DNA from: Ignavibacteriota bacterium
Lineage (GTDB): Bacteria > Bacteroidota > Ignavibacteria > UBA10030
Assembly (NCBI GenBank): GCA_963701295.1
Contig: OY969585.1
Coordinates: forward strand, 96,001-160,000
Direction of reading: 5' to 3'
DNA: 64,000 nucleotides
A program made the position numbers and the translations under genes. Shown piece by piece: positions 16,147-34,701 of this stretch. Under the pieces are notes generated by a model. It saw only the letters and a program-made list of their open reading frames with translations. It did no database searches and had not been told where the DNA came from. The first letter of the stretch is position 1, and every line of letters starts with the position of its first letter.

Positions 16147-16824
16147 ATGGAACGTCATTTTCAAAAAGAATTAGAAAGCCTTAAGACCTCACTCGTCAAA
16201 ATGGGAAGTGTGGTGGAAGAAAATATTGCGATAGCAATTCGTTCAGTGATGGAGAAGAATCAAGAACTGGCGCTCAAAGTCATCGAAGCAGACACACGAG
16301 TCGATGCTCTTGAGATCGAAATCGACAATGCCATCGTTGATTTACTTGCCTTGCAGCAGCCTGTAGCAAGCGACTTGAGATTTATTCTAGCTGCATTAAA
16401 AATTAATAACGATTTGGAACGCATTGGCGACCATGCTGTGAACATCGCTCAGGCGGCACAAGTACTCTGTTCGCTCCCCAACGCAGAGTTACTAGACGAA
16501 ATTCCTAAAATGGCAGATATCACAAGGACAATGTTGAAAGAAGCGATCGACAGCTTCATCCTTCTCGATCCTGTGAAAGCACGTATTGTTTTAAAAACCG
16601 ACGACCAGATCGATGATCTCAACCGAATAGTCATACGAAAAGTCATTGAATTGCTGAAGACCAACAAACAGACTGCCGAATGCGGGCTGGAAGTAAGCCT
16701 TGTGAGCAGAAACATGGAACGTGTTGCCGATTTAGCGACGAACATTGCCGAAGAAGTTATCTTCCATACACAGGCACGCGTCGTCAAACATCATGCAGAG
16801 GAAAAAAAGAAACCAGTTTCATAA
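16147..16824 (+). CDS. phoU: PhoU (copy 2)
   Basis: LLALQQPVASDLRF, DLERIGDHAVNIA, NMERVADLATNIAE. GAGGAG RBS. Confidence 0.95.
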   Translation: MERHFQKELESLKTSLVKMGSVVEENIAIAIRSVMEKNQELALKVIEADTRVDALEIEIDNAIVDLLALQQPVASDLRFILAALKINNDLERIGDHAVNIAQAAQVLCSLPNAELLDEIPKMADITRTMLKEAIDSFILLDPVKARIVLKTDDQIDDLNRIVIRKVIELLKTNKQTAECGLEVSLVSRNMERVADLATNIAEEVIFHTQARVVKHHAEEKKKPVS

Positions 16825-16896
16825 TATTCTTGTTCATAGAATACGAAATCTTGCAGCAACGGTACTTCGAGATTCTTCTTCCTCTCATCGACGTAT

Positions 16897-19695
16897 CTAA
16901 ATCTCATTCTTCGGCGGATTATTCTTCTCTTGCATCTTCGCCATAAGTTGCGGATACAATTTTTGCGCACACTCTGGACAAACGCCATGACTAAATGTAG
17001 CTTCCGAGTGCTCATTGATGTACTCTTCCAACTGGTTCCAGTATCCTTTATCATCACGTATTTTCTTACAGCTTGCACAAATTAGAATAAGGCCATTCAA
17101 CACTTTGATTTTGGCTAAAGCTTCATCAACACTTTTTATTAGTTCTTCTTTACGCTTGAGGAGTTGTCTTACACGCAGACGATACACACCAAAACCGGCT
17201 CCAATAAAAGCAACGATCACTAATCCATAGAACCATATTGTTTTCCAAAAAGGAGGAGTGATGATAATTCGAATAGAAGTTCCCTTATCATTCCATACGC
17301 CTTGATTATTAGAAGCTTTGACACGAAATGTGTATGTCCCTCCCGACAAATTCGTATATGTTACGAAACGCCTATCCGCATCCGTATAATTCCATTCTTT
17401 CTCAAATCCTTCCATCATATATGCATAGGAATTTCCCTTTGGTGAAACATAATGAAGGCCTGCAAATTCAAAAGAAAAAACATTCTCTTTATAGGAAAGA
17501 TGAACCTCGTCGCACTCTGAGATGGAACGTTGAAGAATTGTGCGTCCGTCAATTCCCTTACCTATTGGAACAGGTTTATTAAAGATTTGAAAATCGGTGA
17601 TCACAACTGATGGGCGAGATGTATCAACACGGATACTGTCTGGGTGAAAAATATTGAAACCATTCGTGCCGCCAAAAATCATCTCTCCGCTTTTAAGCTT
17701 ACAACAGGCATTTGTTGCAAACTCATTGCTTTGAAGTCCATTACTCTGATAGTAATTCTTAAATTTAATTGTGCGAGGATCAAGTTTAGATAATCCATGA
17801 TTGGTGCCGATCCAGAGATTGCCATGATCATCTTCAAGTATTCCTTGTACACTGTTGTCTGGTAACCCGTCACTTTCGAAATACTGATGGAAAGTTTCGG
17901 TATTTTGATCAAATTTATTGAGACCGTTTGATGTGCCTAACCAAATTGCACCGATGCGATCTTCATGGAGACATATAACTTTATCATCGCTTATACTGTT
18001 GGAATCTCGACTATCAGACCGATAATGGAAGAATATTCCTTTTTCAGGATCAAAACGTTCCACCCCCTTGAACAGGGTTCCAATCCAAAAACTACCCGAA
18101 GAAACCTCACACAATGTCCAAACACAATTGTCGCTTATACTCTTCGAGTCATTTTGATCGTGAACATATCGAGTAAATTCTCCCTTTTCATAATCGAATC
18201 GATTTATGCCGCCGCCAAAGGTTCCTACCCACAAATTTCCTACTCGGTCCTCGCAAATTCTCCATATAAAATTATTACTTAAACTATGAGGATTATTGTT
18301 ATCCAATTGATAATGGATGAATTTCCCTTTCTTCCGATCAAAATAATCCAAACCATTATCTGTGCCGATCCATAATTTATTGTATCTATCTTCGTATATA
18401 CTTCGAACCACATCATTGCTCAGACTATTAGAATTGTTCGGAATATGAATATAGTGCGTAAATTGATTTTTCCCCCGGTCTAAACAATCTAAACCTCCTC
18501 CATCAGTTCCTATCCAAATCATTCCCTGGCGATCTTCGTAAACAGCATGGACCGTATTCTTACACAAGCTGTTTACATCATTGGGATGATTTCTATAAAG
18601 TTTGAATTGTCTTTTACCCATATTATATTTATTGATTCCATTATAACTCGTTCCTACCCATAGTATGCCCAACTTATCTTCAAAGATTGAAAGCACCGAA
18701 TTACCGCTAAGGCTTGCAGGATCTTGAGGATTGTTTCGATAATGAACAAATTTATCATTGATCCCAACTTTTGAACCAGCAACAAATTTATCAAGTCCTC
18801 CACCATCGGTACCGATCCAGAGATTTCCGTCATGATCTTCGATAATAGATCTGACAATATTGTGACTTAAACTATTAGGTTTGTTCGGATTGTTCTGATA
18901 ATGGACAAATTGCTTCTTTTGAGGATCAAACCGATTCAATCCACCGCCCCATGTCCCTACCCACAGATTCCCTACATGGTCTTCGCAGATTCTCGATGAG
19001 CCATTTATACTGTGAGGATTATCAGGATCATTTTGATAGCAGGTGAATTCTCCTTTCTTTCGGTCAAAATAATTCAATCCGTCATCAGTGCCAACCCAAA
19101 GACGTCCGTGCCTATCCTCAAGAATCGATAATACATTATTCTGTCTCAGACTTTTGGGGTTACTCGGATTACATTTGTAATGTATAAATTTTTCTTTTTT
19201 CCTGTCAAACTGATCGAGACCTCCTCCTTGTGTACCTATCCAAAGTGTTCCCGACCGATCTTCGTAAATAGATCGAACAAAGTTAGTACTTAAGCTATTC
19301 GGATCATTCAGATTATTTTTGTAATGAATAAATTTTTCTTCTTCTCTATCAAAGCGATTAAGTCCATCTTCCGTTCCAACCCAAAACGTACCCAAGTGAT
19401 CCTCTATAATAGATTCAACACTATTATTGCTCAGGCTAAACGGGTTTTTAGGATCGTTTTTATATACCTTAAAAGTATATCCATCATAACGATTGAGACC
19501 TGCATAAGTACCAAACCATAAAAAACCCTTGCTGTCTTGACAGATGCTTAATATCGAACTCTGGGATAGCCCGGATTCAGTCGATATCCTTTCAAATTGA
19601 ATTTCATCCGTCTGAGAATAGGATCGGGGGGCAAAGAATATTATTGTAATGTTCAATGCAATAGCCAGTCTATATATTGCATTTTTCATTTTCAT
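16897..19695 (-). CDS. Beta-propeller/Y_Y_Y membrane sensor with a C-terminal Cys/His domain; no PAS, no kinase
   Basis: Signal peptide, ~14 Reg_prop repeats (EDxxGxLWxGTxGGGL), Y_Y_Y (YAYMMEGFEKEW...YTNLSGGTYTFRVKASN), PPFWKTIWF TM, then ICASCKKIRDDKGYW...FSHGVCPEC. Track start is 19722. Confidence 0.85.
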   Translation of the reverse strand: MKMKNAIYRLAIALNITIIFFAPRSYSQTDEIQFERISTESGLSQSSILSICQDSKGFLWFGTYAGLNRYDGYTFKVYKNDPKNPFSLSNNSVESIIEDHLGTFWVGTEDGLNRFDREEEKFIHYKNNLNDPNSLSTNFVRSIYEDRSGTLWIGTQGGGLDQFDRKKEKFIHYKCNPSNPKSLRQNNVLSILEDRHGRLWVGTDDGLNYFDRKKGEFTCYQNDPDNPHSINGSSRICEDHVGNLWVGTWGGGLNRFDPQKKQFVHYQNNPNKPNSLSHNIVRSIIEDHDGNLWIGTDGGGLDKFVAGSKVGINDKFVHYRNNPQDPASLSGNSVLSIFEDKLGILWVGTSYNGINKYNMGKRQFKLYRNHPNDVNSLCKNTVHAVYEDRQGMIWIGTDGGGLDCLDRGKNQFTHYIHIPNNSNSLSNDVVRSIYEDRYNKLWIGTDNGLDYFDRKKGKFIHYQLDNNNPHSLSNNFIWRICEDRVGNLWVGTFGGGINRFDYEKGEFTRYVHDQNDSKSISDNCVWTLCEVSSGSFWIGTLFKGVERFDPEKGIFFHYRSDSRDSNSISDDKVICLHEDRIGAIWLGTSNGLNKFDQNTETFHQYFESDGLPDNSVQGILEDDHGNLWIGTNHGLSKLDPRTIKFKNYYQSNGLQSNEFATNACCKLKSGEMIFGGTNGFNIFHPDSIRVDTSRPSVVITDFQIFNKPVPIGKGIDGRTILQRSISECDEVHLSYKENVFSFEFAGLHYVSPKGNSYAYMMEGFEKEWNYTDADRRFVTYTNLSGGTYTFRVKASNNQGVWNDKGTSIRIIITPPFWKTIWFYGLVIVAFIGAGFGVYRLRVRQLLKRKEELIKSVDEALAKIKVLNGLILICASCKKIRDDKGYWNQLEEYINEHSEATFSHGVCPECAQKLYPQLMAKMQEKNNPPKNEI

Positions 19696-19804
19696 TCTTT
19701 CTATAGTGAAAATGAATATCAAGAACAGAAAAAGAAAATAAATAGTGAAGAGAGGTTTTGGCTTATAATCATCGAAAATACTTCCTCCTTCATATTATAA
19801 CACC

Positions 19805-20400
19805 CTATTTTTTCTTCATATAGTCTGGATAGAGTTTTGCCGCACAGTCCGGACAAATGCTATGACTAAACTTGGCATCTGATCGATCTTGGATATACGA
19901 TTCGATTTGCGTCCAATATCCTTGATCATCACGGATCTTCTTGCAATTCGCACAAATCGGTACCAGCCCACTTAACAACTTTACATCAGCAAGGGCATCT
20001 TGAAGCTCGGTGATAAGACGTTCGCGTTCGACTTCTGCCTTTTTGCGTTCAGTGATGTCACGGCCAATACCAACCAGGCCATTAGTTTGACCTTTTTCAT
20101 CTCGTAATGGAAGCTTTGAAGTGACCAGCCAATGTTTTTGACCCTGTTCATCAATTACATATTCTTCTCTGTTGATCACCGGCTGACCGGTTTGAATCAC
20201 TGTTCGGTCGTCAGCAATAAAACCTTCTGCTAATTCCTTCGGAAATAAATCGAAGTCGTCCTTTCCGAGTACGTCCGCTTCCAATTTAAGACCCATATTG
20301 TGGATATCTGCCAGGTTAGCGATAGTTTTTCGGCATTGAATATCTTTCACATAAATTGCATCCGGGATATTATCAATTAATGTTCGAAGAAGGTTGCGCT
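19805..20400. repeat. Direct repeat B, copy 1 (PAS + Cys/His domain coding)
   Basis: Colinear with 23419-24014 at a constant offset of 3614. Both proteins end in an identical LQDALADVKLLSG...YPDYMKKK. Confidence 0.85.
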
Positions 20401-22992
20401 CTTTTGTAAGGGCTGCTTCCATTCGTTTTTGTGCTGCAAGATCTCTGGCTTGCGCTCGCCACCTGTAAATCCAAAAGATAATGCCTGTTATAACGACAAA
20501 CAGTATAAATCTGAACCAAAGAGTATGCCAGAATGGGGGTGTGATGAAGATTTTCAGCGAGACACCTTTTTCATTCCAAACCCCATCGTTATTGCTTGCT
20601 TTTATCCTGAAAGTGTATTCGCCCGGGTTTAAATTCGTATATGTCGCTATTCGGTTATGAGCACTTGTAGTATGCCATCGATCATCGAATCCTTTCAATG
20701 TGTAGGTATATTTGTTTTTTTCAGGATTTGTAAAATCTAATGCAGTAAACTCGATAGAAAAAAAGTCCGCTTTATGAGACAAGATTATTGTGTCAGTTTC
20801 AGTGATTGATTTTTTAAAAATAATGTTGCCGTCAATCTCCTGTCCAACAGTTATCGAATTGTTGTAAATCTTAAAATCTGATAATACTATCTGAGGGGGA
20901 ATACTATTGGTTGTTAAACTCTTTGGATCGAAAATATTAAACCCATTCGGCCCTCCAAATAACAACTTTCCATCTGTTGATTGGCAGTTGGCGTTAGAGA
21001 AAGCATAATCTTGCAGCCCATCGGTATAATCATAGGTATGGAAGGATTTAGTTTTTGGATTAAATTTTAAAATCCCGTTTGTTGTGCTTACCCATAAATT
21101 GTAATCATTATCTTCCAATATTGCTTTAATACTCATATCCGGCAATCCGTCTTTATCAGAGAAAGCAGTAAACTCATTTGTTTTCATATCTAGTTTATTC
21201 AGGCCCCAACCATCACTGCCAAACCACATATTGCCTTCATGATCTTCGAAAATACAAAATATATTATCATTACTGAGACTATTATGATCATTCATGTGTC
21301 TGTAATGATTAAATTTTATTTTGGGAAAAGATTTGTTGAAATCATAATCGTTTAATTTTACCATTTCCAGTCCTGAGGAAGTAGCAATCCAAATATAATG
21401 GCGGCTGTCTTCAAATATAGTGGTTGTATATTTTTCGACAAAACTATCAGGATCGTTTGGGTCATTTTTATAATGATAAAACCGGTTTGTTTTCCGGTCA
21501 TATAAATCCAATGTTCCATTCAGCCCTGCTGCCCACAGATTATGTTTGCTATCTTCCAATAAAGCCCAAACATTATTATCGATTAGACTATACTTATTGT
21601 TCGGATCATGTATAAATCGAATAAATTTATTCTCTTTTCTTTTATAACAATTGATGCCATGAGCATACGTGCCAACCCAGACGTTATCTTCAAAATCTTT
21701 AGCAAGGCAAACAACAGCGTTGCCGCTAATAGAATTTGGGTTACCGGGATTATTAAGAAAATGTTTGAACTTATTAGTTTTTTTATCCCAGAAATTCAAA
21801 CCGCCGCCATCCGTTCCAATCCAATATTTTTCATCTTTATCTTCAATAATTGAGGTTACAGATTTATTGCTCAAGCTGTTTTTATCAGAAGGATTAGGAG
21901 TGTGTAATCCGAAATTCGTTTTCTCCTCCTCATCCATATTCAAACCTGCATTAGAAGTGGCTACCCAAATTATTCCAGACCTGTCTTCAAAAGTTAGATT
22001 GATTCCATCGCTGCTAAGTGAGTTTGGGTTTGTTGTTTCATATTTACAATAATCAAATAACTCTGTCTTTTTATTATAAAGTGAAATACCGCCGCCATCG
22101 GTACTAATCCAAAAAATTCCGTCTTTATCCTGCCTGATGTGGTTTATAATGTTAGCAGATACTGAATTTTTCTTCGGTACGTTTATATATTGTTTGAAAA
22201 CATTATGATTTTTATCCCACGAAATTAAACCCGCACCGGACGAACCAAACCAATATAAACCGTCAGTATCTTCCAAAAACATAGACATCCTGCTTGCTTG
22301 TTTTTCTATATTGGGAATTAAGATTGGATAATGTTCATAATTACCAGTTTGTGGATTGAATCTATCAATTATTTTATTGCTCGCGCTAATCCAGATATTG
22401 GAATGTTTATCTTCATAAGCGCCATAAATTACATTTCCACTAATACTATTCGGATTATCATTGTTGTGTTCATATCGTTTAAAAACAGATTTTGCTTTAC
22501 TAAAATCGGTACCATCATTGACCGGTAATGTCCAGATGCCTTCCGAAAATGTACCTAACCATAGAACTCCTTTTGAATCACAGAAAATACTAGTGAAGTG
22601 GTTGCCGTTCTCATTCGCATAAATAGATTTGAACCTTTCTTTCTTTTTATCGAACATAGTAAGCCCGGTGGAGAAATAATCCAAATCCTGTCATTATTAT
22701 CTTCAGCGAAAAATTGTATTCCGTTTGAAATCGTAGCAGGATCACTTTCTACAGGTTTATATGCTTTAAATTGATAACCGTCATAACGAAATAATCCATT
22801 CCATGTTCCTATCCATAAAAAACCATGTTTATCCTGCGAAATTGCATTGATATAATTATTTGTAAGTCCCTGTTCCTTAGAAAATTTCTTAAACTCTATA
22901 TTTCTATTTTGTCCGAAACCATTATTCAAAGTAATGATAAGAATAATGAAAATGCTAAGGACTTTAATAATCCGAAAAGATTTCATGCTCAT
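19805..22992 (-). pseudogene. Beta-propeller/Y_Y_Y sensor + 1 PAS + Cys/His domain, frameshifted near 22670
   Basis: ORF 22555-22992 supplies the signal peptide and first blades (QDKHGFLWIGTWNGLFRYDG). ORF 19805-22684 continues (GLTMFDKKKERF...PPFWHTLWF...PAS...PICANCKKIRDD...SHSICPDC). Confidence 0.8.
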
Positions 22993-23165
22993 CCTTCATG
23001 GATGATACTAGGTATGAAGTTCTTCGCTATTCTTCTCAATTTATTCCTGCTGCTCGATGAAAAGATTGTTTGCCTTTTTCAGATCTTCACTCCACGAGCA
23101 AAGTTCTTTGCCACTAATATATATATAGCAACAATAAATCAATTTTTGCTCTAAGGCAACATCCC

Positions 23166-23408
23166 CTATGAATCTTCCTTTTGTGTAAAATCCGGATACA
23201 GTTTCTTCATACAATCAGGACAGATACCATGGGTGAAACGAGCCTGTGATCGCTCTTGAATATACGCTTCAACTTGAGTCCAGTATCCTTTATCATCACG
23301 AATCTGTTTACAATTTGCACAGATAGGAAAATGAGAATATCCTATCACTTGTTTCAATCCATTGAAATACGCGTTGTGAAGCACCATGCGGAAGAGAAAC
23401 ACTAGCAT
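23166..23408 (-). CDS. Stand-alone Cys/His (putative Zn-binding) domain protein or gene remnant
   Basis: PICANCKQIRDDKGYWTQVEAYIQERSQARFTHGICPDCMKKLYP. Its DNA parallels 27667-27830. ATG lies 10 nt after the upstream stop. Confidence 0.55.
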   Translation of the reverse strand: MLVFLFRMVLHNAYFNGLKQVIGYSHFPICANCKQIRDDKGYWTQVEAYIQERSQARFTHGICPDCMKKLYPDFTQKEDS

Positions 23409-23418
23409 TTCTGATATA

Positions 23419-24014
23419 CTATTTTTTCTTCATATAGTCTGGATAGAGTTTTGCCGCACAGTCCGGACAAATGCTATGACTAAACTTGGCATCTGATCGA
23501 TCCTGGATATACGATTCGATTTGCGTCCAATACCCTTGGTCATCACGGATCTTCTTGCAATTCGCACAAATCGGTACCAATCCACTTAACAACTTTACAT
23601 CAGCAAGTGCATCTTGAAGCTGTGCGATGAGCTTCTCACGCTCAGCTTCAGCTTTTTTTTGTTCAGTGATGTCATGGCTAACACCAACCAGACCGATAGT
23701 TTGACCTTTTTCATCTCGTAATGGAAGCTTTGAAGTGACCAACCAACGTTTCTGACCCTGTTTATCAATTACATATTCTTCTCTGTTGATCACCGGCTGT
23801 CCGGTTTGTATCACTGTTTGGTCGTCAGCAACAAAGCCTTCTGCTAGTTCTTTCGAAAATAATTCAAAGTCGTCTTTCCCTAAAGCTTCAGCCTCTGATT
23901 GCAGACCCATGTTGTGCACATCGGCTAAGTTGGCGACGGTCTTGCGGGAGGCTGTGTCTTTTACATAAATTGCATCAGGAATATTATCAATGAGTGTCCG
24001 AAGAAGGTTGCGCT
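23419..24014. repeat. Direct repeat B, copy 2
   Basis: Colinear with 19805-20400. Confidence 0.85.
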
Positions 24015-27000
24015 CGCGTTGCAATGACTCCTGCGCCCTCATAAGGTCGCTGATTTCGCGCGAGATCCCCACGAGCCCCACGATTTGACCACTGTCATCG
24101 CGCATCGGGACTTTTGTGGTCCAAGTCCAAATGGTCTGTCCGTCCTCCAATTGCCTGCTCTCAATGAGGCCTATGATCGGTTCGCCTGATTCCATCATTC
24201 GCTGTTCAATTTCTATTGACTTTCGGCCATGCTCCTCGCCCCACAGGTCTATATCGGTCTTTCCGACGATCTGACTCATATCGTCCACATTCAGGTCTCG
24301 CATTTCTTTACGGTTCATTCTAATATGACGGCACTGCCGGTCTTTAAAGTAAATACTATCCGGGATGTTATCCATCAGTGCATCTAAAAGTGATTTTTCA
24401 TGTTTTAGTGCTTCCTCAATATGCTTTTGTTCTGTAATTTCTCGACCGACACCCACAAGACCAGTAATCTGACCCTGTTCATCCCGCAAGGGCAGCTTGG
24501 AGGTAAGCAACCAATGTCCTTTGCCCTCTTTGTCAATAAGAAATTCCTCCTTATTGAGCACCGGTTGACCAGTTTGGATAACCGATTGATCATCGGCACA
24601 GAAAGCTGCCGCTATATCTGACGGATAGATATCGTAATCATTCTTTCCCAACACTTCAGCTTCTGATTGTGCACCCATATTGCGAACATCCGCTGCATTA
24701 GCGACGGTCTTGCAACATTTAGTGTCTTTCACATATACCGCATCCGGTAGATTATCGATCAATGTCCGAATAAGATTGCGCTCTTGAGTAAGGGCTGCAT
24801 CCATCCGTTTTTCTGCTGATAGGTCTCTTGCTTGCATACGCCACTTGTAGATCCAGAAAGCAATACTCCCAAGAACAATGAGGAGAAGTCCATAGAACCA
24901 AAATGTTTTCCAAAAAGGAGGAGTGATAATGATGCGAATAGAAGTTCCCTGATCATTCCATCTGCCTTGATTATTGGAAGCTTTGACACGAAATGTGTAC
25001 GTCCCTCCCGGCAAATTCGTGTACGTCACGAAACGCCTGTTTGCGTCCGTGTAATTCCATTCTTTATCAAATCCTTCCATCATATATGCATAGAGATTAC
25101 CCTTTGGTGAAGCATAATGAAGGCCTGCAAATTCAAAAGAAAAAACATTCTCTTTATAGGAAAGATGAATTTCATTACAGTCTGATATGGATTTTGCAAG
25201 AATTGTGCGTCCTTCTGCATTCTCACCTATAGCGACAGGCTTATTAAAGATTTGAAAATCGGTAACCACTACCCTTGGAAGGGATGGATCATCTATAATA
25301 CTGTCCGGATTAAAAATATTGAAACCATGGACTCCGCCAAAGATCATCTCACCGCTCCGGCTTCTAAAGCAGGCATTCGCACTAAATTCATTGCCTTGCA
25401 GTCCATAATTTTCAAAATAGCTTTTAAAGTTACCGGTACTGGGATTATATTTTGATAAACCATGATTGGTACTGATCCAGAGATTGCCATGATCGTCTTC
25501 CAGTATTCCGTGTATGCTGTTGTTTGGTAATCCATCGCTTTCGTTATATCGATGAAAAGTTCCGGCATTTCGATCAAATTTATTGAGACCGTTCGATGTG
25601 CCTACCCAGAAAGCTCCTGCGCGACCTTCATAGAGACAAATGACTTTATTATCGCTTATGGTGTTGGAATCCCGATTATCAGACTGATAATGAAAGAATA
25701 TTCCTTTTTCAGTATCAAAACGGTACAAGCCTCCTGTAAGGGTTCCAATCCAAAAAATATCGGAAGAATCTTCATGCATTGTCCAAATAAAACTGTCGCT
25801 TATACTCTTTGGGTCATTTTGATCATAATTATAACGAGTAAATTCACCCTTTGCATAATCGAATCGATTCAATCCTCCGCCAAAGGTTCCTACCCACAGA
25901 TTCCCTGCCCGGTCTTCGTAGATGCTCCATGCACTATTATTACTTATACTGTGAGGATTATTGGGATCATTTCGATAGCGGATGAATTTCCCTTCCTGTC
26001 TGTCAAAATAATTTAACCCATCATCTGTACCAATCCATAACCTATTGTGCCGATCTTCATAGACACTTCTGATCGTGTTATTACTCACACTGTAAGGATT
26101 CTGCGGATTATACACATAGTGCGTAAATCGATTTTTTTTTCGGTCTAAACGATCTAAACCTCCACCACCGGTTCCTATCCAGATCATTTCCTGGCTATCC
26201 TCGCAAATGGCATGGACCGTATTCTTAGACAAGCTGTTTATATCATTGGGACGATTTCTGTAAAGCACGAAATGTTTTTTGCCCGGATTATATTTATTGA
26301 TACCATTGAAATTTGTTCCTACCCACAGGATGCCCAACTGATCTTCAAATATTGAAAGCACCGAATTACCGCTCAGACTCGTAAGATCTTGAGGATCGTT
26401 TCGATAATGAATAAACAGATCATTGCCTCCAACTTTAGAACCAGCTACAAATTTATCGAGTCCCCCACCATCGGTACCTATCCAGAGATTTCCATTATGA
26501 TCTTCGTGAATGGATCTGACAATATTTTGATTTAAACTAGTAGGATCGTTCGGATTGTTCCGATAATGGACAAACCGATTCTTCTGAGGATCAAACCGAT
26601 TCAATCCGCCGCCCCATGTCCCTACCCACAGGTTCCCTGAGCGGTCTTCATAGATTCTCCATATACCAGTAGGACTGATACTGTGAGGATTTTGAGGATC
26701 ATTTACATAACGCGTGAATTCTTTTGTTTCCCTGTTAAAATAATTCAATCCGTAATCGGTGCCAATCCAAAGACGTCCATGCCTATCCTCGAGAATCGAT
26801 AATACATTATTCTGGCTCAGACTTTTGGAATTACTCGGATCATTTATGTAACGGATAAATTTTTCTTCTTTTCTGTCAAACTGATTGAGCCCTCCCCCCT
26901 GGGTGCCTACCCAAAGGGTTCCCGACCGGTCTTCATAAATAGATCGGACATAATTATTACTCAGACTGCCCGGATCATTCGGATTGTTTGTGTAGTGAGT

Positions 27001-27366
27001 AAACCGTTCTTTTTCCCGATCAAACCGATTGAGACCACCTTCCGTTCCAATCCAAAGTGTACCCAAATGATCTTCAATAATAGCCTCAACATTGTTTTTG
27101 CTCAGGCTAAATGGATTCTCAGGATCGTTTTTATATACCTTAAAAGTATACCCATCATACCGATTAAGACCTTCATAAGTCCCAAACCATAAAAACCCCT
27201 TGCTGTCTTGACAGATGCACAATACCGAACTCTGAGATAACCCTGATTCAATGGATATCCTTTCGAATTGAATCTCGTTCATTTGAGAATGGGATGGGGA
27301 AATCAGAAAAATAGCGGTTATGCCCCATAAGACAAACACCTTCGATAAATTAGTTTTCATATTCAC
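23419..27366 (-). CDS. Beta-propeller/Y_Y_Y membrane sensor + 3 PAS + Cys/His domain; no kinase
   Basis: Signal peptide, Reg_prop repeats, Y_Y_Y, PPFWKTFWF TM, three PAS/PAC units (DNLPDAVYVKD, DNIPDSIYFKD, DNIPDAIYVKD), PICANCKKIRDD...SHSICPDC. Confidence 0.88.
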   Translation of the reverse strand: MNMKTNLSKVFVLWGITAIFLISPSHSQMNEIQFERISIESGLSQSSVLCICQDSKGFLWFGTYEGLNRYDGYTFKVYKNDPENPFSLSKNNVEAIIEDHLGTLWIGTEGGLNRFDREKERFTHYTNNPNDPGSLSNNYVRSIYEDRSGTLWVGTQGGGLNQFDRKEEKFIRYINDPSNSKSLSQNNVLSILEDRHGRLWIGTDYGLNYFNRETKEFTRYVNDPQNPHSISPTGIWRIYEDRSGNLWVGTWGGGLNRFDPQKNRFVHYRNNPNDPTSLNQNIVRSIHEDHNGNLWIGTDGGGLDKFVAGSKVGGNDLFIHYRNDPQDLTSLSGNSVLSIFEDQLGILWVGTNFNGINKYNPGKKHFVLYRNRPNDINSLSKNTVHAICEDSQEMIWIGTGGGGLDRLDRKKNRFTHYVYNPQNPYSVSNNTIRSVYEDRHNRLWIGTDDGLNYFDRQEGKFIRYRNDPNNPHSISNNSAWSIYEDRAGNLWVGTFGGGLNRFDYAKGEFTRYNYDQNDPKSISDSFIWTMHEDSSDIFWIGTLTGGLYRFDTEKGIFFHYQSDNRDSNTISDNKVICLYEGRAGAFWVGTSNGLNKFDRNAGTFHRYNESDGLPNNSIHGILEDDHGNLWISTNHGLSKYNPSTGNFKSYFENYGLQGNEFSANACFRSRSGEMIFGGVHGFNIFNPDSIIDDPSLPRVVVTDFQIFNKPVAIGENAEGRTILAKSISDCNEIHLSYKENVFSFEFAGLHYASPKGNLYAYMMEGFDKEWNYTDANRRFVTYTNLPGGTYTFRVKASNNQGRWNDQGTSIRIIITPPFWKTFWFYGLLLIVLGSIAFWIYKWRMQARDLSAEKRMDAALTQERNLIRTLIDNLPDAVYVKDTKCCKTVANAADVRNMGAQSEAEVLGKNDYDIYPSDIAAAFCADDQSVIQTGQPVLNKEEFLIDKEGKGHWLLTSKLPLRDEQGQITGLVGVGREITEQKHIEEALKHEKSLLDALMDNIPDSIYFKDRQCRHIRMNRKEMRDLNVDDMSQIVGKTDIDLWGEEHGRKSIEIEQRMMESGEPIIGLIESRQLEDGQTIWTWTTKVPMRDDSGQIVGLVGISREISDLMRAQESLQRERNLLRTLIDNIPDAIYVKDTASRKTVANLADVHNMGLQSEAEALGKDDFELFSKELAEGFVADDQTVIQTGQPVINREEYVIDKQGQKRWLVTSKLPLRDEKGQTIGLVGVSHDITEQKKAEAEREKLIAQLQDALADVKLLSGLVPICANCKKIRDDQGYWTQIESYIQDRSDAKFSHSICPDCAAKLYPDYMKKK
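24029..24768. repeat. Direct repeat A, copy 1 (two PAS domains, ~740 bp)
   Basis: Near-identical to 28664-29403 at offset 4635. The peptide ADDQSVIQ...REISDLMRAQE is identical in both proteins. Confidence 0.9.
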
Positions 27367-27666
27367 TCTTTCGCTTATGATTGCGAGTATGACAGTTCCT
27401 CATATTTCATTCATTACTAAGATTGTAAAATAAGAATATCCGATCAATAGTTCCGATTTATTTAAATATGCATTATGAAGTATTCTAAAGACAAGCCTGT
27501 CTGATGTACTATTCTTTCATGTCAAAGACCGGATAAAGCTTTGCTGCACAATTTCCTATTCTACATTCCATGATCCTAATCTTACCGAAAAATCATTTGC
27601 CATCTTCGCTATTTAAGATGTTCACGGATTTCCGTTTTGCAATTTCATTTTCAAAGATAGTATTCT

Positions 27667-30300
27667 CTACTCATCTTCTTTTTGTAAAAATTCCGGATAC
27701 AGTTTCTTCATACAATCAGGGCAGATACCGTGACTAAAGCGAGCATGCGACCGTTCTTGGATATAGGATTCTACTTGCATCCAGAATCCTTTGTCATCAC
27801 GTATTTGTTTGCAATTTGCACAGATAGGAACAAGTCCGCTCAGTGTTTTGACTTCAGAAAGAGCAGCTTGAAGTTTTTTGATAAGTTGTTCACGTTCTTC
27901 TTCGATTCGCTTCCGTTCAGTGATATCGCGATCAATGCCAATGGTCATTATCTTTCCCTGCATCTTAAAGGGAACCGCAGTGTATTCAATGACATTATCC
28001 TTTCCATCTGGCCGGATCCAGCTATATGATCCGCCAAACACAACATCATGGACGTTGGATTCATGATGGTCATCACTGAGCGATTTTGCAATGTCCATAG
28101 TAGTTCCAATTTGCAGCAATTCTTCTCGACTCCGCCCAGCCATCTCAGCATAGCGTTTATTGCAATCGATGAGCCTTCGATGTTTTCGATTAGAAGTTTC
28201 CTCAAAAACACTGAGACCATCGTATGCATTTTCAAAAACAAATCGAAATTTATCTGCAGTTTCCCGAAGTGTTTCTTCCATTCGTTTGCGCTCAGTGATG
28301 TCACGGTCAATACCAACAGTTCCAATGACTTTGCCTTCGACATCCCGAAGAGGGACTTTGGTCGTCGAAACCCATCTCTCTTTTTCTTCTTTGCTTGCGT
28401 CTACTGCAGGACCTTCGTAATCATATAACCCCTTACCTGATTGAATAATCTCCTGCTCATATGCATAGTATTGCAATGCCAAATCATGCGGAAAAAGGTC
28501 AAAATCCGTTTTCCCGATAAGTTTGTCCTCAGATGAAAATCCGAATTTATGCACCACAGCAATATTGCCTACGATATAACGGCCTTTGGTATCCTTTATA
28601 TAGATGTAATCTGGCAAGTTATCAATTAATGTACGAAGAAGAGTGCGTTCACGTTCGCGCTCTTCCTGCGCCCTCATAAGGTCGCTGATTTCGCGCGAGA
28701 TCCCCACGAGCCCCACGATTTGACCACTGTCATCGCGCATCGGGACTTTTGTGGTCCAAGTCCAAATGGTCTGTCCGTCCTCCAATTGCCTGCTCTCAAT
28801 GAGGCCTATGATCGGTTCGCCTGATTCCATCATTCGCTGTTCAATTTCTATTGACTTTCGGCCATGCTCCTCGCCCCACAGGTCTATATCGGTCTTTCCG
28901 ACGATCTGACTCATATCGTCCACATTCAGGTCTCGCATTTCTTTACGGTTCATTCTAATATGACGGCACTGCCGGTCTTTAAAGTAAATACTATCCGGGA
29001 TGTTATCCATCAGTGCATCTAAAAGTGATTTTTCATGTTTTAGTGCTTCCTCGATATGCTTTTGTTCTGTAATTTCTCGACCGACACCCACAAGACCAGT
29101 AATCTGACCCTGTTCATCCCGCAAGGGCAGCTTGGAGGTAAGCAACCAATGTCCTTTGCCCTCTTTGTCAATAAGAAATTCCTCCTTATTGAGCACCGGT
29201 TGACCAGTTTGGATAACCGATTGATCATCGGCATAGAAAGCTGCCGCTATATCTGCCGGATAGAAATCGTAATCATTCTTTCCCAAGACTTCTGCCTCTG
29301 ATTGTCCGCCCATATTATGAACATCTGCTAAATTAGCGACGGTCTTGCAACATTTAGTGTCTTTCACATATACCGCATCCGGTAGATTATCAATCAATGT
29401 CCGGAGAATATTACGTTCATGCTGAAAAGTCTCTTCTGTTTGTTTGCGTTCGGTGATATCACGAATTGTGAATATATGTAATTCCTTACCGCCCATTCGA
29501 GTGATTCTTCCACGAATCTCTGCAGGAAATGTTGTGTCATTTTTCCGCAGACCAAGAATTTCATAAGATTCTCTTATGTCCAATTGAATCGCCCCATTGA
29601 CGTGAGCACGTAATTCGGGTACGACTATATCGAGGAGTGATTTTCCAATGAGTTCACTCCTCTTATATTCATACATATGTGCAAGTTGATCGTTCATATC
29701 GACAATAATACCATTTTCCGTTAGTGCGATACCTTCAAAGGAAGCCTCAGCAAGCGTCCTGAATCTGTGCTCACTTTCATGCACCGCTTGTTCTATTTGT
29801 TTCTGTGCCTCTTCAGCTTTTTTACGAGAAGTGATATCCTTCACTGCCGAAATAACTGTTGGTTTTCCCTTCAACTCAAATAAATGATTACTCACCTCGA
29901 CCGGAATTCTATGACCATTTTTTGCAAGATGTATCCCTTCCCAGATTGTATATTTCTGTGTCATAAGTTTTTTCATCATCACTTCAACGTGGGGAATGGT
30001 CTCGGGGGCATGAATGTCGTATGGACCTTTTTTAAGAAGTTCCTCCCGGGTATATCCTAATTGTTTGCAGGCAACTCCATTCACTTCGAGAAACTTAGAA
30101 GGCACTCCCTCTTGATTGTGATATTCATAGACAAATATTTCATCATTAACGCTATTGAAAAGAAGATTGTATAACTCAGTAAAAGGCAGCAATACTGTTT
30201 TTGCCCTCTTGTTTGATGCAGCCCCATTTTTTTTTATGCGCTTGCGCAATCGAGCAACTTCGTTAAGAAGTTGAGCCTTTGTTTTAATCATGTGTTTCAT
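27667..30300 (-). CDS. Cytoplasmic six-PAS protein with a C-terminal Cys/His domain; no kinase
   Basis: N-terminal KTKAQLLNEVARLRKRI coiled coil, six PAS/PAC units ending in DIT/EIT/EIS motifs, then LSGLVPICANCKQIRDDKGFW...SHGICPDC. Confidence 0.88.
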   Translation of the reverse strand: MKHMIKTKAQLLNEVARLRKRIKKNGAASNKRAKTVLLPFTELYNLLFNSVNDEIFVYEYHNQEGVPSKFLEVNGVACKQLGYTREELLKKGPYDIHAPETIPHVEVMMKKLMTQKYTIWEGIHLAKNGHRIPVEVSNHLFELKGKPTVISAVKDITSRKKAEEAQKQIEQAVHESEHRFRTLAEASFEGIALTENGIIVDMNDQLAHMYEYKRSELIGKSLLDIVVPELRAHVNGAIQLDIRESYEILGLRKNDTTFPAEIRGRITRMGGKELHIFTIRDITERKQTEETFQHERNILRTLIDNLPDAVYVKDTKCCKTVANLADVHNMGGQSEAEVLGKNDYDFYPADIAAAFYADDQSVIQTGQPVLNKEEFLIDKEGKGHWLLTSKLPLRDEQGQITGLVGVGREITEQKHIEEALKHEKSLLDALMDNIPDSIYFKDRQCRHIRMNRKEMRDLNVDDMSQIVGKTDIDLWGEEHGRKSIEIEQRMMESGEPIIGLIESRQLEDGQTIWTWTTKVPMRDDSGQIVGLVGISREISDLMRAQEERERERTLLRTLIDNLPDYIYIKDTKGRYIVGNIAVVHKFGFSSEDKLIGKTDFDLFPHDLALQYYAYEQEIIQSGKGLYDYEGPAVDASKEEKERWVSTTKVPLRDVEGKVIGTVGIDRDITERKRMEETLRETADKFRFVFENAYDGLSVFEETSNRKHRRLIDCNKRYAEMAGRSREELLQIGTTMDIAKSLSDDHHESNVHDVVFGGSYSWIRPDGKDNVIEYTAVPFKMQGKIMTIGIDRDITERKRIEEEREQLIKKLQAALSEVKTLSGLVPICANCKQIRDDKGFWMQVESYIQERSHARFSHGICPDCMKKLYPEFLQKEDE
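28664..29403. repeat. Direct repeat A, copy 2
   Basis: Near-identical to 24029-24768. Confidence 0.9.
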
Positions 30301-30978
30301 AATGTAACTCCAACAAAACCTATAATACTCATATCTTATACCAGCTTATTCTGTTTCTCAATACTGCAAGCAATGAATAAAATAAAGAGAAGAAGCACTA
30401 TAGAATTAGGCTTCATAAAAGTATCACCAAGATTATATATGAATAAATAATCGCGAAACTGTAGTGAGAAGAATTCTATTAAGAAATAACTCATATTCCA
30501 TCTCTCCTACGGTGATAACAGTCACAGGAACGTAGGTATGGCATTTCTGCATACTATGTGGGAATATCAGAGATGATGAATGAGACAGCATCAGAATGAA
30601 TATTCGCATGTGCCCACGATGCAATGCTTACATCTGTTCCCCTTTTTCACCGAGATGTACGTTATGGCATTCAACAATAAAATCTTATAAAGAATCACCA
30701 AGACATCATCTGGTGGTAATTTTCGGCAAGATTCTTATCGTCAATGCCGGATGCGCGCTACCACTATTATTTGTACAAATTTACTTTATATCCTCTTCAA
30801 AATCAAAAAATGTTAAAATAGAAAGTAAGGATAAAAAGCAACGAGATCTTCTTGCTCGGCCACGAGAAGTTGCTGTTGCAGTGCATTGATGAGGCCTTTA
30901 CATGTTTATCTAAAATAACTCATGCTATTCAAACATCTTTATATCGCCCTGCCAGGGCTTTGTTTTTTTCTGGTTTAT

Positions 30979-31635
30979 CTACAAAACTGTTTTATATTCG
31001 ATTGCGAATTTAAGGAGGGAATGACTTCCGTGGATTTCAAGCTTGTTGCAGATGTTGGTTCGATGATTCTCGACGGTCCGATAACTGATATGTAAATCAT
31101 CTCCGATTTCTTTACTCGTTTTGTTTCCCGAGATGAGGCGTAGTACTTTGCGTTCGGTGGGTGTGAGGTTCTCCAACTGAGGTTTCTTCTTGAGCAGTGA
31201 ACGGACGTAATCACTTCTGCTGACGAGGTATTCTGAAATAGACGGACTAAGGTAGTACCGTCCAGTTGCAACAGTCTTAATAGCGGCGACGATATCACTT
31301 ACTGCGCTATCCTTCAACACATACCCTTTCACTCCAAGATCCATCGCTTCGTTGAACATATCTTCTTCTTTGTACATCGTTAAAAGGACAATGTGAGACG
31401 GGAGATGTCGTTTGATGATTTCCCCTGCGACCTGAAGGCCAGTTAATCCCGGCATTTCAATATCTAGCACGATAACATCCGGCTTGAGTTTTTCTGTAAG
31501 ATACAGTGCTTGTTGTCCGTCCCCCGCTTCACCGATGATTTCTATGGAACGTTCTGATCCAATTGCTAAGAGCAGGCCTTTGCGAAATATCGGATGATCA
31601 TCTGCAATGATGATTCGTAATTTAGTTTTCGCCAT
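30979..31635 (-). CDS. NarL/FixJ-family response regulator (REC + LuxR HTH)
   Basis: IIADDHPIFRKG, VLDIEMP, GYVLKD, LTPTERKVL...TSKEIG...SYRTVENHRTNICNKL. Confidence 0.93.
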   Translation of the reverse strand: MAKTKLRIIIADDHPIFRKGLLLAIGSERSIEIIGEAGDGQQALYLTEKLKPDVIVLDIEMPGLTGLQVAGEIIKRHLPSHIVLLTMYKEEDMFNEAMDLGVKGYVLKDSAVSDIVAAIKTVATGRYYLSPSISEYLVSRSDYVRSLLKKKPQLENLTPTERKVLRLISGNKTSKEIGDDLHISYRTVENHRTNICNKLEIHGSHSLLKFAIEYKTVL

Positions 31636-32425
31636 CTATTCTATCGTACGTTTTTATTGTTATTAATACTCTGGTTCCTTTTCCAAGGTTCGATTCAATT
31701 CTCATCGTTCCTCCAATAAACCGAGTACGTTCTGCAATTCCCTGCAAACCTATCCCGCGTTCATTTTGAGTTCGCTGCAGTGAAACATTAAATCCGGTAC
31801 CGTTATCTTCTACGTCAATATTCAGCCGATTATACCATCGCTTGATGGTAACTTTTCCGGCAGTTGCATTCGCATGTTTGATGATATTGTTGACGCATTC
31901 CTGTATAATTCTATAGACATGAATTTCCATTTCTTTTGGAATAAGATTATCAATGGGATCGATATCTGATGTAAAGGAAATCGTCGTCGTCTGCGCTGCT
32001 CTATTGATAATCGATTCGAGCGACTTCTTTAATCCTAATCTATCAATCTGGTAGGGACGAAGATTATTTGTGATCTCTCTGGTTTCTTGAATTGCCTGCG
32101 ATGCTGTATGAGAAATCTCATCGAGTTGTTCTCGCACTTTTTTCTTGTTCTTCAGATCACTTAATGCCAACAATGCCCTGTTCTTAATGATGAGAAGCTC
32201 CTGGCCAATGCTGTCGTGCAATTCAGTAGCTATGCGTTTTCGTTCTGCTTCCATCGAATCAATTAATTGGCGCGTAAATACATTTTGTTCATGTAAGGAA
32301 CGGCGACGATGCTTTCGCTGAAAATAGAATAAATATCCAATCAGCGCGAGAATACAAAGCAGAATGATCTGGAAATATAACGTTTCCCAAATTGGTGGTT
32401 GATCTGCAAAAAAACCTGTTTTCAT
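31622..32425 (-). CDS. HisKA_3 histidine kinase with a single TM and no sensor domain
   Basis: PPIWETLYF TM, ERKRIATELHDSIGQ, YRIIQECVNNIIKHA, EDNGTGF, GIGLQGIAER. Start uncertain (ATG 32425 or TTG 32482). Confidence 0.88.
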   Translation of the reverse strand: MKTGFFADQPPIWETLYFQIILLCILALIGYLFYFQRKHRRRSLHEQNVFTRQLIDSMEAERKRIATELHDSIGQELLIIKNRALLALSDLKNKKKVREQLDEISHTASQAIQETREITNNLRPYQIDRLGLKKSLESIINRAAQTTTISFTSDIDPIDNLIPKEMEIHVYRIIQECVNNIIKHANATAGKVTIKRWYNRLNIDVEDNGTGFNVSLQRTQNERGIGLQGIAERTRFIGGTMRIESNLGKGTRVLITIKTYDRIDGEN

Positions 32426-32688
32426 GAAGTCTAATTGAATAATGATCTCCTCCCCATAGAAATAATCAAAAAGATAAAACAACTCTTTTCACAAACATAG
32501 TACGAGAAAAACGTAGGAGTGTCAAGAAAGGGATTGAGAGAAAAGGAAGACTCTTCTTAAACAACCGTTGAAGACATCATCGCTTTGTTGTATATTGAAA
32601 GTAAGATTTAAGAAATACGATATGAGACCTTATTTGCTCTCTATCTGAAATCTCTCATTCTCAACCACGAAAAAAGATTATATTGCCG

Positions 32689-34701
32689 ATGTCGTTCCAG
32701 CTCATCTCAGACCTCACTCCTTCCGGCGATCAACCAGAAGCAATTCGACAGCTTGTTGAGGGGATAGAACGCGGCGACCGGCATCAGACGCTGCTCGGCG
32801 TTACTGGCAGCGGAAAAACCTTTACTATTTCGAATGTCATCACGCACATCGATAAACCCGTGCTCGTGATGTCTCACAACAAGACACTCGCAGCGCAACT
32901 ATATGCCGAGTTTAAAAGTTTCTTCCCCAATAATCGCGTCGAGTTCTTCATCAGCTATTACGATTATTATCAGCCGGAAGCATACATCCCGACCACCGAT
33001 ACTTACATCGCCAAAGATTCTTCGGTAAACGATGAAATTGACCGTCTGCGATTGCGTGCAACGAGTGCCTTGCTCAGCGGCGATCCCAATGTTATCGTCG
33101 TTGCTTCAATCAGTTGTATTTACGGTATTGGCGCACCTGATGAATGGATCAGCCAGACATTAACGCTGAAAAAAGGAGATCATCTCGGCCGTCAAGGACT
33201 ACTCAAACGACTTATCGACTTATTGTATATACGGAACGACTATGAGTTTGCTCGCGGGACATTTCGTGTGCGAGGTGATGTGGTAGAAGTTATCCCCAGC
33301 TATGAAAATGAAGAGGCAATACGAATCGAATTTTTCGGTGATGAAATTGAGCGTATCTCGTACATCAATAAAGTGGATGGCCGAGTTGTCGGAGAAGCTG
33401 ATTTTGAAATGATTTATCCTGCCAAACAATTCATTACGTCGCGTGAAACCATTGAGCGGGCGATGGATGGCATCTATACGGAATTGCGTGAGAGAACAAC
33501 TGAACTCCGTTTTCTCGGGAAACTCGTCGAAGCACAACGAATTGAACAACGAACACGGTTTGACATGGAAATGCTGCGCGAAGTCGGTTATTGTTCAGGC
33601 ATTGAAAATTATTCACGCCATTTCGCAGGCAGGCCGCAGGGTTCACGTCCATCATGTTTGTTGGATTATTTCCCGAAAGATTTTCTTACCATTATTGACG
33701 AATCACATGTTTCTGTACCGCAAATCGGCGGCATGTATGCCGGTGATCGTTCGCGGAAAACGACCCTCGTGGAGTACGGATTCCGACTCCCATCAGCGCT
33801 CGATAATCGACCATTGACATTCGATGAATGGGAAGCGATGGAGAAACAAATCATTTTTGTCAGCGCAACGCCGGGACCATACGAACTGCAGAAATGCCAA
33901 GGCATCTTTGTGGAACAAGTTATCCGCCCCACCGGCCTGATTGATCCAGATGTCGAAGTTCGTCCAAGCAAACACCAGATTGACGATTTGATTGCTGAGA
34001 TTCGGACACGCACGGCACGAAAGGAACGCACATTGGTAACTACCTTAACAAAGCGTATGGCTGAAGACCTGACAGAATACCTAACGAATATTGGAATCAG
34101 AGTCCGTTATATCCATTCGGAAGTGGATGCATTGGAACGCGTGGAAACACTGCGTGATTTGAGATTGGGCGAGTTCGATGTTCTTGTGGGTGTGAATTTG
34201 CTTCGGGAAGGGCTCGATTTACCAGAAGTTTCTCTGGTTGCCATTATTGATGCGGACAAAGAAGGATTCCTTCGATCCGAACGCTCGCTCATCCAAACTG
34301 CAGGCCGCACAGCACGCAACGTTAACGGCAAAGTTATTCTCTATGCAGATAGAATGACCGGGTCAATGGAACGAATGATCAGTGAAACAAATCGTCGTCG
34401 CACAAAACAAATCGATTACAATACGAAGCATGATATCACACCTGTTACGATTTATAAGACGGTAGAGGAAATTCTCGCCGCTACATCCATTGCCGATGTG
34501 AAGATGAAACGGGAAGAACGTGATCAGAAATCCAAACCTCTGGCCATTGCCGAGACAGTAGCAAAGTACCTCACAAGCGACCAGAAGAAAGATCTGCTGA
34601 ATGAATTAAAAGCGGAGATGAAACGGGCGGCAAAAGATTTGGAATTCGAACGTGCCGCGGAATTACGGGACGAAATTGAAAAGTTGGAAAAGAAAAGCTA
34701 A
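32689..34701 (+). CDS. uvrB: Excinuclease ABC subunit B
   Basis: [47 protein letters not shown]-terminal UVR domain. Confidence 0.98.

Follow-up and report, generated by a model that had tools for sequence, protein, structure and literature searches.

A four-cysteine C-terminal module shared by an array of kinase-less sensors in an Ignavibacteriota genome: a candidate common signalling output

In the Reg_prop and Y_Y_Y kinases, and in the hybrid two-component systems of Bacteroidota, a propeller sensor is followed by HisKA and HATPase domains, with REC and an AraC-type helix-turn-helix (HTH) domain added in the hybrids. Cysteine-rich modules also occur as outputs: HalOD2 and TackOD1 are cysteine-rich output domains found on response regulators of archaea and predicted to bind zinc (Galperin et al. 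2018, PMC5847659). Here, a locus from an Ignavibacteriota bacterium is analysed in which five consecutive genes (g1 to g5) end in the same cysteine-rich tail and carry no kinase. It lies in a window of 64,000 nucleotides (nt), meaning the whole stretch of DNA under study (contig OY969585.1, positions 96,001 to 160,000; assembly GCA_963701295.1), and all coordinates refer to that window. The reading favoured here, to which about even chances are given, is that the five genes are alternative sensors sharing one output, a C-terminal module outside the curated families, some 50 residues long and with four cysteines and one histidine, that would act on a shared target.

The tail is about 55 amino acids long and follows the pattern CxxC...HxxCPxC. 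The five copies share 29 invariant columns and are 58–76% identical to the g5 tail, which bears out the starting point of an earlier sequence-only reading of this DNA, namely that five co-oriented genes end in a single domain. Its five putative ligands proved to be conserved as well: the four cysteines and the histidine (C35, C38, C68, C71 and H65) are invariant in an alignment of 64 sequences, together with K39, R42, W48, E52 and P69. About 20 of 50 tail positions are nearly invariant across phyla, including those of a DDxGY loop, and the four-cysteine, one-histidine module probably binds metal. As also stated in that reading, HisKA, HATPase, GGDEF, PP2C and HTH domains were not found in g1–g5 by Pfam (E ≤ 0.01), and the same search did not find the cytoplasmic HisKA, HATPase_c, REC and AraC-type HTH set of the hybrid systems. 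Furthermore, no model of Pfam or NCBIfam reaches its cut-off on the five tails, so the tail, a module conserved in its own right, matches no curated output family.

The pattern of substitutions shows that the tail is under strong purifying selection. The tail proteins of g2 and g4 are identical, and the 5 differences in their 186 nt are all synonymous. Between the g3 and g5 tails, nonsynonymous divergence (dN) is 0.072 and synonymous divergence (dS) is 1.09. This selection extends to g3, a gene with the tail only, which on these values has long been maintained by selection and is no decaying remnant.

The input side of the array is varied, and all five genes lie on the minus strand. The product of g1 (16897–19722; 941 amino acids) comprises a signal peptide, a Reg_prop propeller, Y_Y_Y, a PPFW membrane helix, a helix of about 35 residues and the Cys4/His tail (16900–17118; tail-profile match 3.5e-39), with zero PAS domains (Pfam Reg_prop 1.9e-79, Y_Y_Y 3.4e-18). 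The main frame of g2 (19805–22684; 959 amino acids) encodes Reg_prop, Y_Y_Y, the membrane helix, one PAS and the tail (19808–19993; 4.9e-42), and a separate open reading frame (ORF) of 145 amino acids (22555–22992, minus strand) holds its signal peptide and first propeller blade (Reg_prop 1.2e-9). With 1315 amino acids, the g4 product (23419–27366) has Reg_prop, Y_Y_Y, the membrane helix, three PAS domains and the tail (23422–23607). Ten nucleotides after the g4 stop comes g3 (23166–23408; 80 amino acids), in which no Pfam family scores above its cut-off and the tail profile matches at 9.3e-39. Finally, g5 (27667–30300; 877 amino acids) encodes a soluble protein with six PAS domains, no propeller and the tail (27670–27861; 2.6e-42), PAS_4 matching at 2.1e-69 in 6 stretches. 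Throughout g1, g2 and g4 the sensor part is of one kind (Reg_prop 7.7e-49 to 1.9e-79, Y_Y_Y 3e-20 to 3.4e-18, PPFW helix). The Pfam results thus reproduce the inputs first read from the letters: propeller sensors with 0, 1 and 3 PAS domains, one soluble six-PAS protein and one tail-only gene.

The tail is far from confined to this array. Its profile finds 11 copies in the 3.64-Mb single-contig genome (E 2.6e-42 to 3.3e-17), so the pattern is not a product of chance. The six tail genes outside the array encode another Reg_prop/Y_Y_Y sensor, a PAS-GAF sensor, two REC receivers, a small PAS-like domain and a membrane-only N-terminus. Among related genomes, 26 of 31 (the own genome counted) have a tail match, and all 15 congeners have 6–13 matches, often in tandem arrays. 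When the profile was run against 1.84 billion cluster representatives, 23,261 proteins matched at E ≤ 1e-3, of which 18,695 also passed E ≤ 1e-10. In species genomes, of 600 matches to the pattern, at least 583 stood up to confirmation. The profile search proposed by the sequence-only reading therefore yields a large multi-phylum family with tabulated input-domain partners; its recurrence in 23,261 clusters, along with the purifying selection on the tail, shows that these genes are not truncated kinases. The matches listed include Ignavibacteriae, Desulfobacterota, Spirochaetota, Nitrospirota and Acidobacteria, and further Verrucomicrobia, anammox Planctomycetes, Dehalococcoidia, Myxococcota, Calditrichota and others. 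Five other genomes hold 3–12 tail copies each, four of the five not being labelled metagenome bins, and the cultured hosts of the family include Geothrix oryzisoli and Desulfopila sp.

In the homologues examined, the tail stands at the C-terminus, and the domains attached to it are all inputs or receivers. The pattern CxxC...HxxCxxC is present in all of the best 150 of the 23,261 matches and ends within 48 residues of the C-terminus in 145 of them. A domain census of 122 of these 150 proteins, covering 25 listed families out of 40 partner families, gave PAS_9 (61), PAS_4 (57), MASE6 (17), Y_Y_Y (9), REC (7), Reg_prop (6), GAF_2 (5) and HAMP (5); those 25 did not include any family of kinases, cyclases or HTH domains. 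The best 120 of 2,972 longer homologues agree with this census, their annotations being just 'PAS domain S-box protein', 'response regulator' or 'hypothetical'. The earlier suggestion that many inputs converge on one non-kinase signal fits these inputs-only partners, and fits the 11 paralogues with nearly the same tail. Moreover, one operon in the own genome encodes a PAS-HisKA-HATPase kinase, a REC protein and a REC-tail protein; therefore, the tail also occupies the output position of an ordinary response regulator. Another REC-tail gene (L028, G000:C1:2021549-2028201) follows a gene for a 1001-residue protein with REC and PPDK_N (phosphoenolpyruvate-utilising) domains, the pair being flanked by two glutamate dehydrogenase paralogues.

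The remaining 5 of the 150 proteins carry two sensor-tail units per chain, the second tail lacking the histidine. In these metagenomic proteins (P0005, P0006, P0007, P0015 and P0030) the histidine of the second tail is replaced by E, S, E, N or Q. Such two-unit chains fit a pairing of tails, and the loss of the histidine hints that the pairs may be asymmetric.

The linker in front of the tail is of nearly constant length. Measured from the DIT motif at the PAS end to the first tail cysteine, it is 35 residues long in nearly all of 121 junctions (118), the others having 42 residues (two junctions) or 49 (one). At loci from diverse phyla, 24 of 28 junctions have 35 residues, one has 28, one has 21 and two have 74, the last two probably arising from a false upstream motif. 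Linker lengths in multiples of seven typify a continuous coiled coil, PAS kinases and PAS cyclases being examples. Modelled as a homodimer, the helix plus the tail passed its controls, scoring 0.54 versus 0.00 for the best of three, with 100% contact agreement among runs and a partner pLDDT (predicted local distance difference test) of at least 80. In the calibration set, the pass mark was attained by 20 of 30 proteins whose solved structure is a pair of one chain and by 1 of 23 whose solved structure is a single chain. Its contacts are heptad-spaced at residues 8–25 and continue at 25–40 and 59–71; the most confident cross-chain pairs are C68–C35', C71–C35' and C38–C71', and strand 62–66 with 31–35'. 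As modelled, a parallel coiled coil leads into intertwined tails, with the CxxC of one chain set against the CPxC of the other, and the metal sites may bridge the two chains. Most invariant residues fall in the modelled interface, while the nearly invariant DDxGY loop (43–47) lies outside it and is exposed.

Under the shared-output reading, a propeller, PAS or REC input would shift the coiled coil, and this shift would reshape the tail dimer, which would engage or release one target common to all paralogues. The target would be encoded elsewhere and would most likely be a protein; a shared protein is preferred to DNA because the paralogue tails are nearly identical and their core is not basic. 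The array itself would be a fast-recombining sensor set at a syntenic hot spot beside uvrB. A more specific version is offered tentatively, as a possibility rather than an expectation: the tail could be a metal-stapled, intertwined dimer output, neither catalytic nor DNA-binding, that captures or releases one conserved target such as a sigma factor or a surface of RNA polymerase, in the manner of small zinc anti-sigma proteins.

Several points weigh against these proposals. The calibration of the homodimer score is only rough, because the job included two zinc ions and its own alignment, and the coiled coil might by itself account for the score. In two AlphaFold monomer models (pLDDT 85 and 83) the first strand, the last strand and the C-terminal helix look alike, but residues 36–50 form a hairpin in one and a helix in the other, which leaves the fold of the exposed loop uncertain. 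The assignment of metal binding is made from sequence. Since most invariant residues sit in the modelled interface, their conservation may be purely structural and the module perhaps only a dimer cap. In addition, the hit lists examined were the best-scoring ones, skewed to relatives of the window. Finally, no family recurs among 87 genes that flank the tail on its own strand at 80 loci from many phyla (51 of 72 neighbours on the upstream side, 36 of 72 on the downstream side); two-component genes have a modest share, and the counts are HATPase_c 10, REC 9, HisKA 7 and GGDEF 4.

The possibility of a dimer cap is linked to the search for a known identity of the tail. At E ≤ 5, only generic zinc-ribbon families of Pfam match the five tails, all below threshold, with Fin matching two of the five (best E 0.13). 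The nearest clusters in the ESM Atlas are unnamed hypothetical proteins, with no usable named cluster, and no paper on the module was found in the full-text literature outside subscription journals. The best sequence match in the PDB, and the sole one close to significance, is the C-terminus of PerR (E 0.065), with GICPDC aligned. When the tails were compared by hhalign with a profile of 20 Fur proteins from relatives, both cysteine pairs fell in register over 52 columns with a score of 21.9 and a probability of 16%; controls reached at most 7.3 in 60 column shuffles, 3.3 for the reversed alignment and 8.2 for a DksA-type C4 module. Pfam FUR (PF01475) has no match on the five tails at E ≤ 5. 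The dimerisation domain of Fur and PerR is thus taken as the nearest relative, a weak but specific sign of common origin and not of membership. A Fur-family gene (PF01475) was not found in the own genome at E ≤ 1e-10, and is present in 4 of 15 congeners.

Structural comparison was part of the follow-up that the sequence-only reading had suggested: the tail-tail model gave the homodimer described above, but no fold was assigned. For the 85-residue monomer model, the best Foldseek match in the PDB has an E-value of 0.45 and a probability of 0.23; PerR fills the top four rows, with Fur and Zur below (E 0.45 or worse). The best VIA-align Z for this model is 2.3 over 48,161 chains; no chain among Foldseek's 246 reaches Z ≥ 2, and the same applies to the PerR, Fur and Zur chains. 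A 59-residue model gave a best E of 4.5 by Foldseek and a best Z of 3.1 by VIA-align. From these model-based searches the fold does not appear to be assignable, and novelty of the fold does not follow from that.

It could be proposed, on this basis, that the tail is a mere Zn(Cys)4 dimerisation cap derived from Fur/PerR, and that the PAS and REC parts do the signalling, for instance by binding proteins, or that the proteins are decoys. The PerR matches, the hhalign score relative to its controls and the concentration of invariant residues in the modelled interface all fit such a cap, although the hhalign and Foldseek probabilities are low. This explanation seems unlikely, however: a plain cap would not be expected to keep some 20 of 50 positions, or an exposed DDxGY loop, nearly invariant, and it would leave the selected tail-only genes unexplained and the REC-tail regulators with no output.

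The modelled dimer also bears on the idea that the tail itself senses redox state, oxygen or metal and thereby gates dimerisation, either through a thiol–zinc switch, as in PerR and RsrA, or through a bridging iron or iron–sulfur site. The modelled dimer axis brings together eight cysteines and two histidines, many of the host lineages are anaerobic or live in sediments, and PerR, the nearest relative, carries a Zn(Cys)4 site (PDB 2fe3). Nevertheless, this is considered very unlikely, as this would leave the proteins with inputs alone and nothing to serve as output, and the family is also found in aerobes (Geothrix, Acidobacteria and Verrucomicrobia). The spacing of the cysteine pairs in rubredoxin equals that of the tail (CxxC-29-CPxC), but rubredoxin (PF00301) gives no match on the tails at E ≤ 5. 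As a separate observation, a search of 31 genomes for PF00301 gave no match at E ≤ 1e-8.

REC and PAS proteins mostly act, where their outputs are known, by binding DNA, and the tail might likewise be a zinc finger binding DNA or RNA, which would make these proteins one-component or receiver-controlled transcription factors, membrane-anchored in the case of the propeller forms. Residues K39, K40, R42 and K74 are conserved in the 64-sequence alignment, and one Reg_prop-tail gene of the own genome stands in a sugar-use locus, the place of a hybrid regulator in Bacteroidota. In that locus (L026, G000:C1:1861411-1872169), the Reg_prop, Y_Y_Y and tail gene lies within a cluster encoding a GH94 phosphorylase, GH130, a sodium:solute symporter and a galactokinase, a position where Bacteroidota would carry a hybrid two-component regulator. 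Against this, the tail core has a mean net charge of −0.17 (range −6 to +3 in 262 tails), nearly identical paralogue tails could not recognise different operators, and no known DNA-binding fold was matched. A nucleic-acid-binding tail is accordingly rated as rather improbable, and a protein target shared by all tails remains the preferred reading.

The kinase and the regulator next to the array offer a different route to an output. On the minus strand, a gene for a NarL-type response regulator (30979–31635; REC and GerE) lies 678 nt upstream of g5 and matches Response_reg at 2.2e-24 and GerE at 2.5e-15, as well as MctR/NarL-like NCBIfam models below their equivalog cut-offs. It is overlapped by 14 nt by the gene for a short HisKA_3 histidine kinase (31622–32482, minus strand; HisKA_3 7.6e-17, HATPase_c 9.8e-15), and the two form a NarL-type two-component pair. 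The kinase had been called sensor-less; it does lack a sensor domain, but one PPIW membrane helix with a short outer stub remains. Beyond it, uvrB (32683–34701) is encoded on the strand opposite to the array. The 678-nt spacer between regulator and g5 (30301–30978) contains no long ORF. Footprinting of the regulator-to-array spacer found no 12-mer common to at least 5 of 7 congeners, and a promoter and terminator scan of 16500–33000 gave counts near the shuffled expectation (62 versus 50.1 ± 7.3, and 12 versus 11.5).

According to one proposal, the tails or PPxW helices of the array feed this kinase, which then phosphorylates the NarL-type regulator. The N-terminus of the kinase, PPIWETLYF, resembles PPFWKTIWF of g1, g2 and g4, and a fused kinase with Reg_prop, Y_Y_Y, HisKA_3 and HATPase_c is present in one congener (G007); the locus thus resembles one kinase half accompanied by several sensor halves, which bear the tail in the place of the kinase core. 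The kinase has no sensor domain of its own, and the pair is found directly upstream of the array in 6 of 8 congeneric arrays at the syntenic site. With the PPxW membrane-helix motif common to kinase and sensors, a local link of the array to this kinase is possible.

As a general rule, however, reading of the tails by the adjacent pair is not supported. At a threshold of ≥65% identity, 7 of 16 congeners have no orthologue of the kinase yet carry 6–12 tails each (three of the seven without any match at E ≤ 1e-40, four with only 40–43% paralogues), and the arrays of G005 and G006 stand at the same site without the pair. The other six tail genes of the own genome are in unrelated contexts (in the sugar-use locus, between hybrid kinases, beside the REC-PPDK_N gene), none near a HisKA_3 kinase, and the 25 commonest families in the 87 flanking genes at the 80 loci do not include HisKA_3 or GerE. 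Moreover, g5 stands 678 nt from the regulator, g5 and g3 have no membrane helix, and synteny within one genus is not independent evidence. We infer that the kinase/NarL neighbourhood is a genus trait kept by shared ancestry and not a requirement of the module, and it is quite unlikely that feeding this kinase is what the array does.

The array is a recombining mosaic. The sensor parts of g1 and g4 are 82% identical over 2.4 kb, two PAS domains of g4 and g5 are 94.6% identical over 834 bp, the last PAS plus tail of g2 and g4 are 86.8% identical over 597 bp, and the g3 and g5 tails are 84% identical. On these identities, the genes are mosaics of one another and not five independent inventions. 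Reading of g2 is interrupted by a one-base frameshift near 22650–22684, in the run ...ccaccgggctt..., where both frames read across the same bases. Downstream of the break, g2 compared with g4 gives a dN of 0.067 and a dS of 0.54; as the remaining g2 still looks selected, the break is either recent or an assembly error. Among sequencing runs compared with this DNA, no RNA run was listed as a match, and the best DNA run shared 0.14 of the sequence words. The congeneric arrays (L012, L014–L022), located between uvrB and a homologue of the window ORF at 16147–16824, differ in every species examined, with 2 to about 7 tail genes, propellers present or absent, and several broken or short ORFs in G008. 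The site beside uvrB thus has the appearance of a hot spot of duplication and recombination. A small ORF like g3, with the same 10-nt junction after a large gene, is kept in one congener (G004).

Censuses of signalling proteins sort them by output domain, and this tail fills the output position with no curated model, structure or paper found for it. Because the current names of these proteins say no more than 'PAS domain S-box protein' or 'response regulator', their pathways are invisible. Identifying the target would give a function to a large group of sensors, among them those of sulfate reducers, Ignavibacteria, spirochaetes and Acidobacteria, and could bring to light an output that works by neither enzyme activity nor DNA binding. 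If the metal-stapled dimer output were true, one non-phosphorylated signal would be the meeting point of PAS, REC, GAF and propeller sensors that number in the tens of thousands and span more than a dozen phyla, and the array of interchangeable sensors at this locus would tune one node. To the bare module, the window adds a recombining array, a tail-only gene under selection, a heptad-quantised linker and a dimer model.

Compared with known systems, g1, g2 and g4 share the propeller, Y_Y_Y and PPFW helix with the Reg_prop and Y_Y_Y kinases and the hybrid systems of Bacteroidota, but the Cys4 tail stands in place of HisKA and HATPase (and of REC and AraC HTH in the hybrids). Like the DHp domain of PAS histidine kinases and the GGDEF domain of PAS and REC cyclases, the tail is a C-terminal module, dimeric in its model, behind a heptad-quantised coiled coil; it differs in having about 50 residues and no recognisable catalytic motif. 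With the dimerisation domain of the Fur family (PerR 2fe3 and 4i7h; Fur 4ets; Zur 4mtd), it shares the order strand-CxxC ... strand-CxxC-helix, the stretches CxxC-x-K-I-x-D and G-I-C-P-D-C align, and Fur is dimeric, as is the modelled tail. However, the tail proteins have no winged-helix DNA-binding domain, their N-termini being Reg_prop, PAS, REC, GAF, MASE6 or HAMP; the stretch between the cysteine pairs is 6–7 residues shorter in the tail, and the tail caps a signalling coiled coil behind sensor domains.

Other short cysteine-rich modules provide a working analogy rather than membership. CsfB/Gin, Fin and the ZAS anti-sigma domains are small zinc proteins that bind sigma factors or RNA polymerase. 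In the Rad50 zinc hook, a single zinc at the coiled-coil tip is held jointly by CxxC motifs from two chains, an arrangement that the homodimer model suggests for the tail. The nearest items found in print are HalOD2 and TackOD1, likewise predicted zinc-binding output domains on REC. HalOD2 is confined to a few haloarchaea and has two CXXC motifs 20–25 residues apart, and TackOD1 has 11 cysteines (PMC5847659). Set against these descriptions, the tail is distinguished by its 29-residue spacing, its conserved histidine, its CPxC motif and its wide bacterial range.

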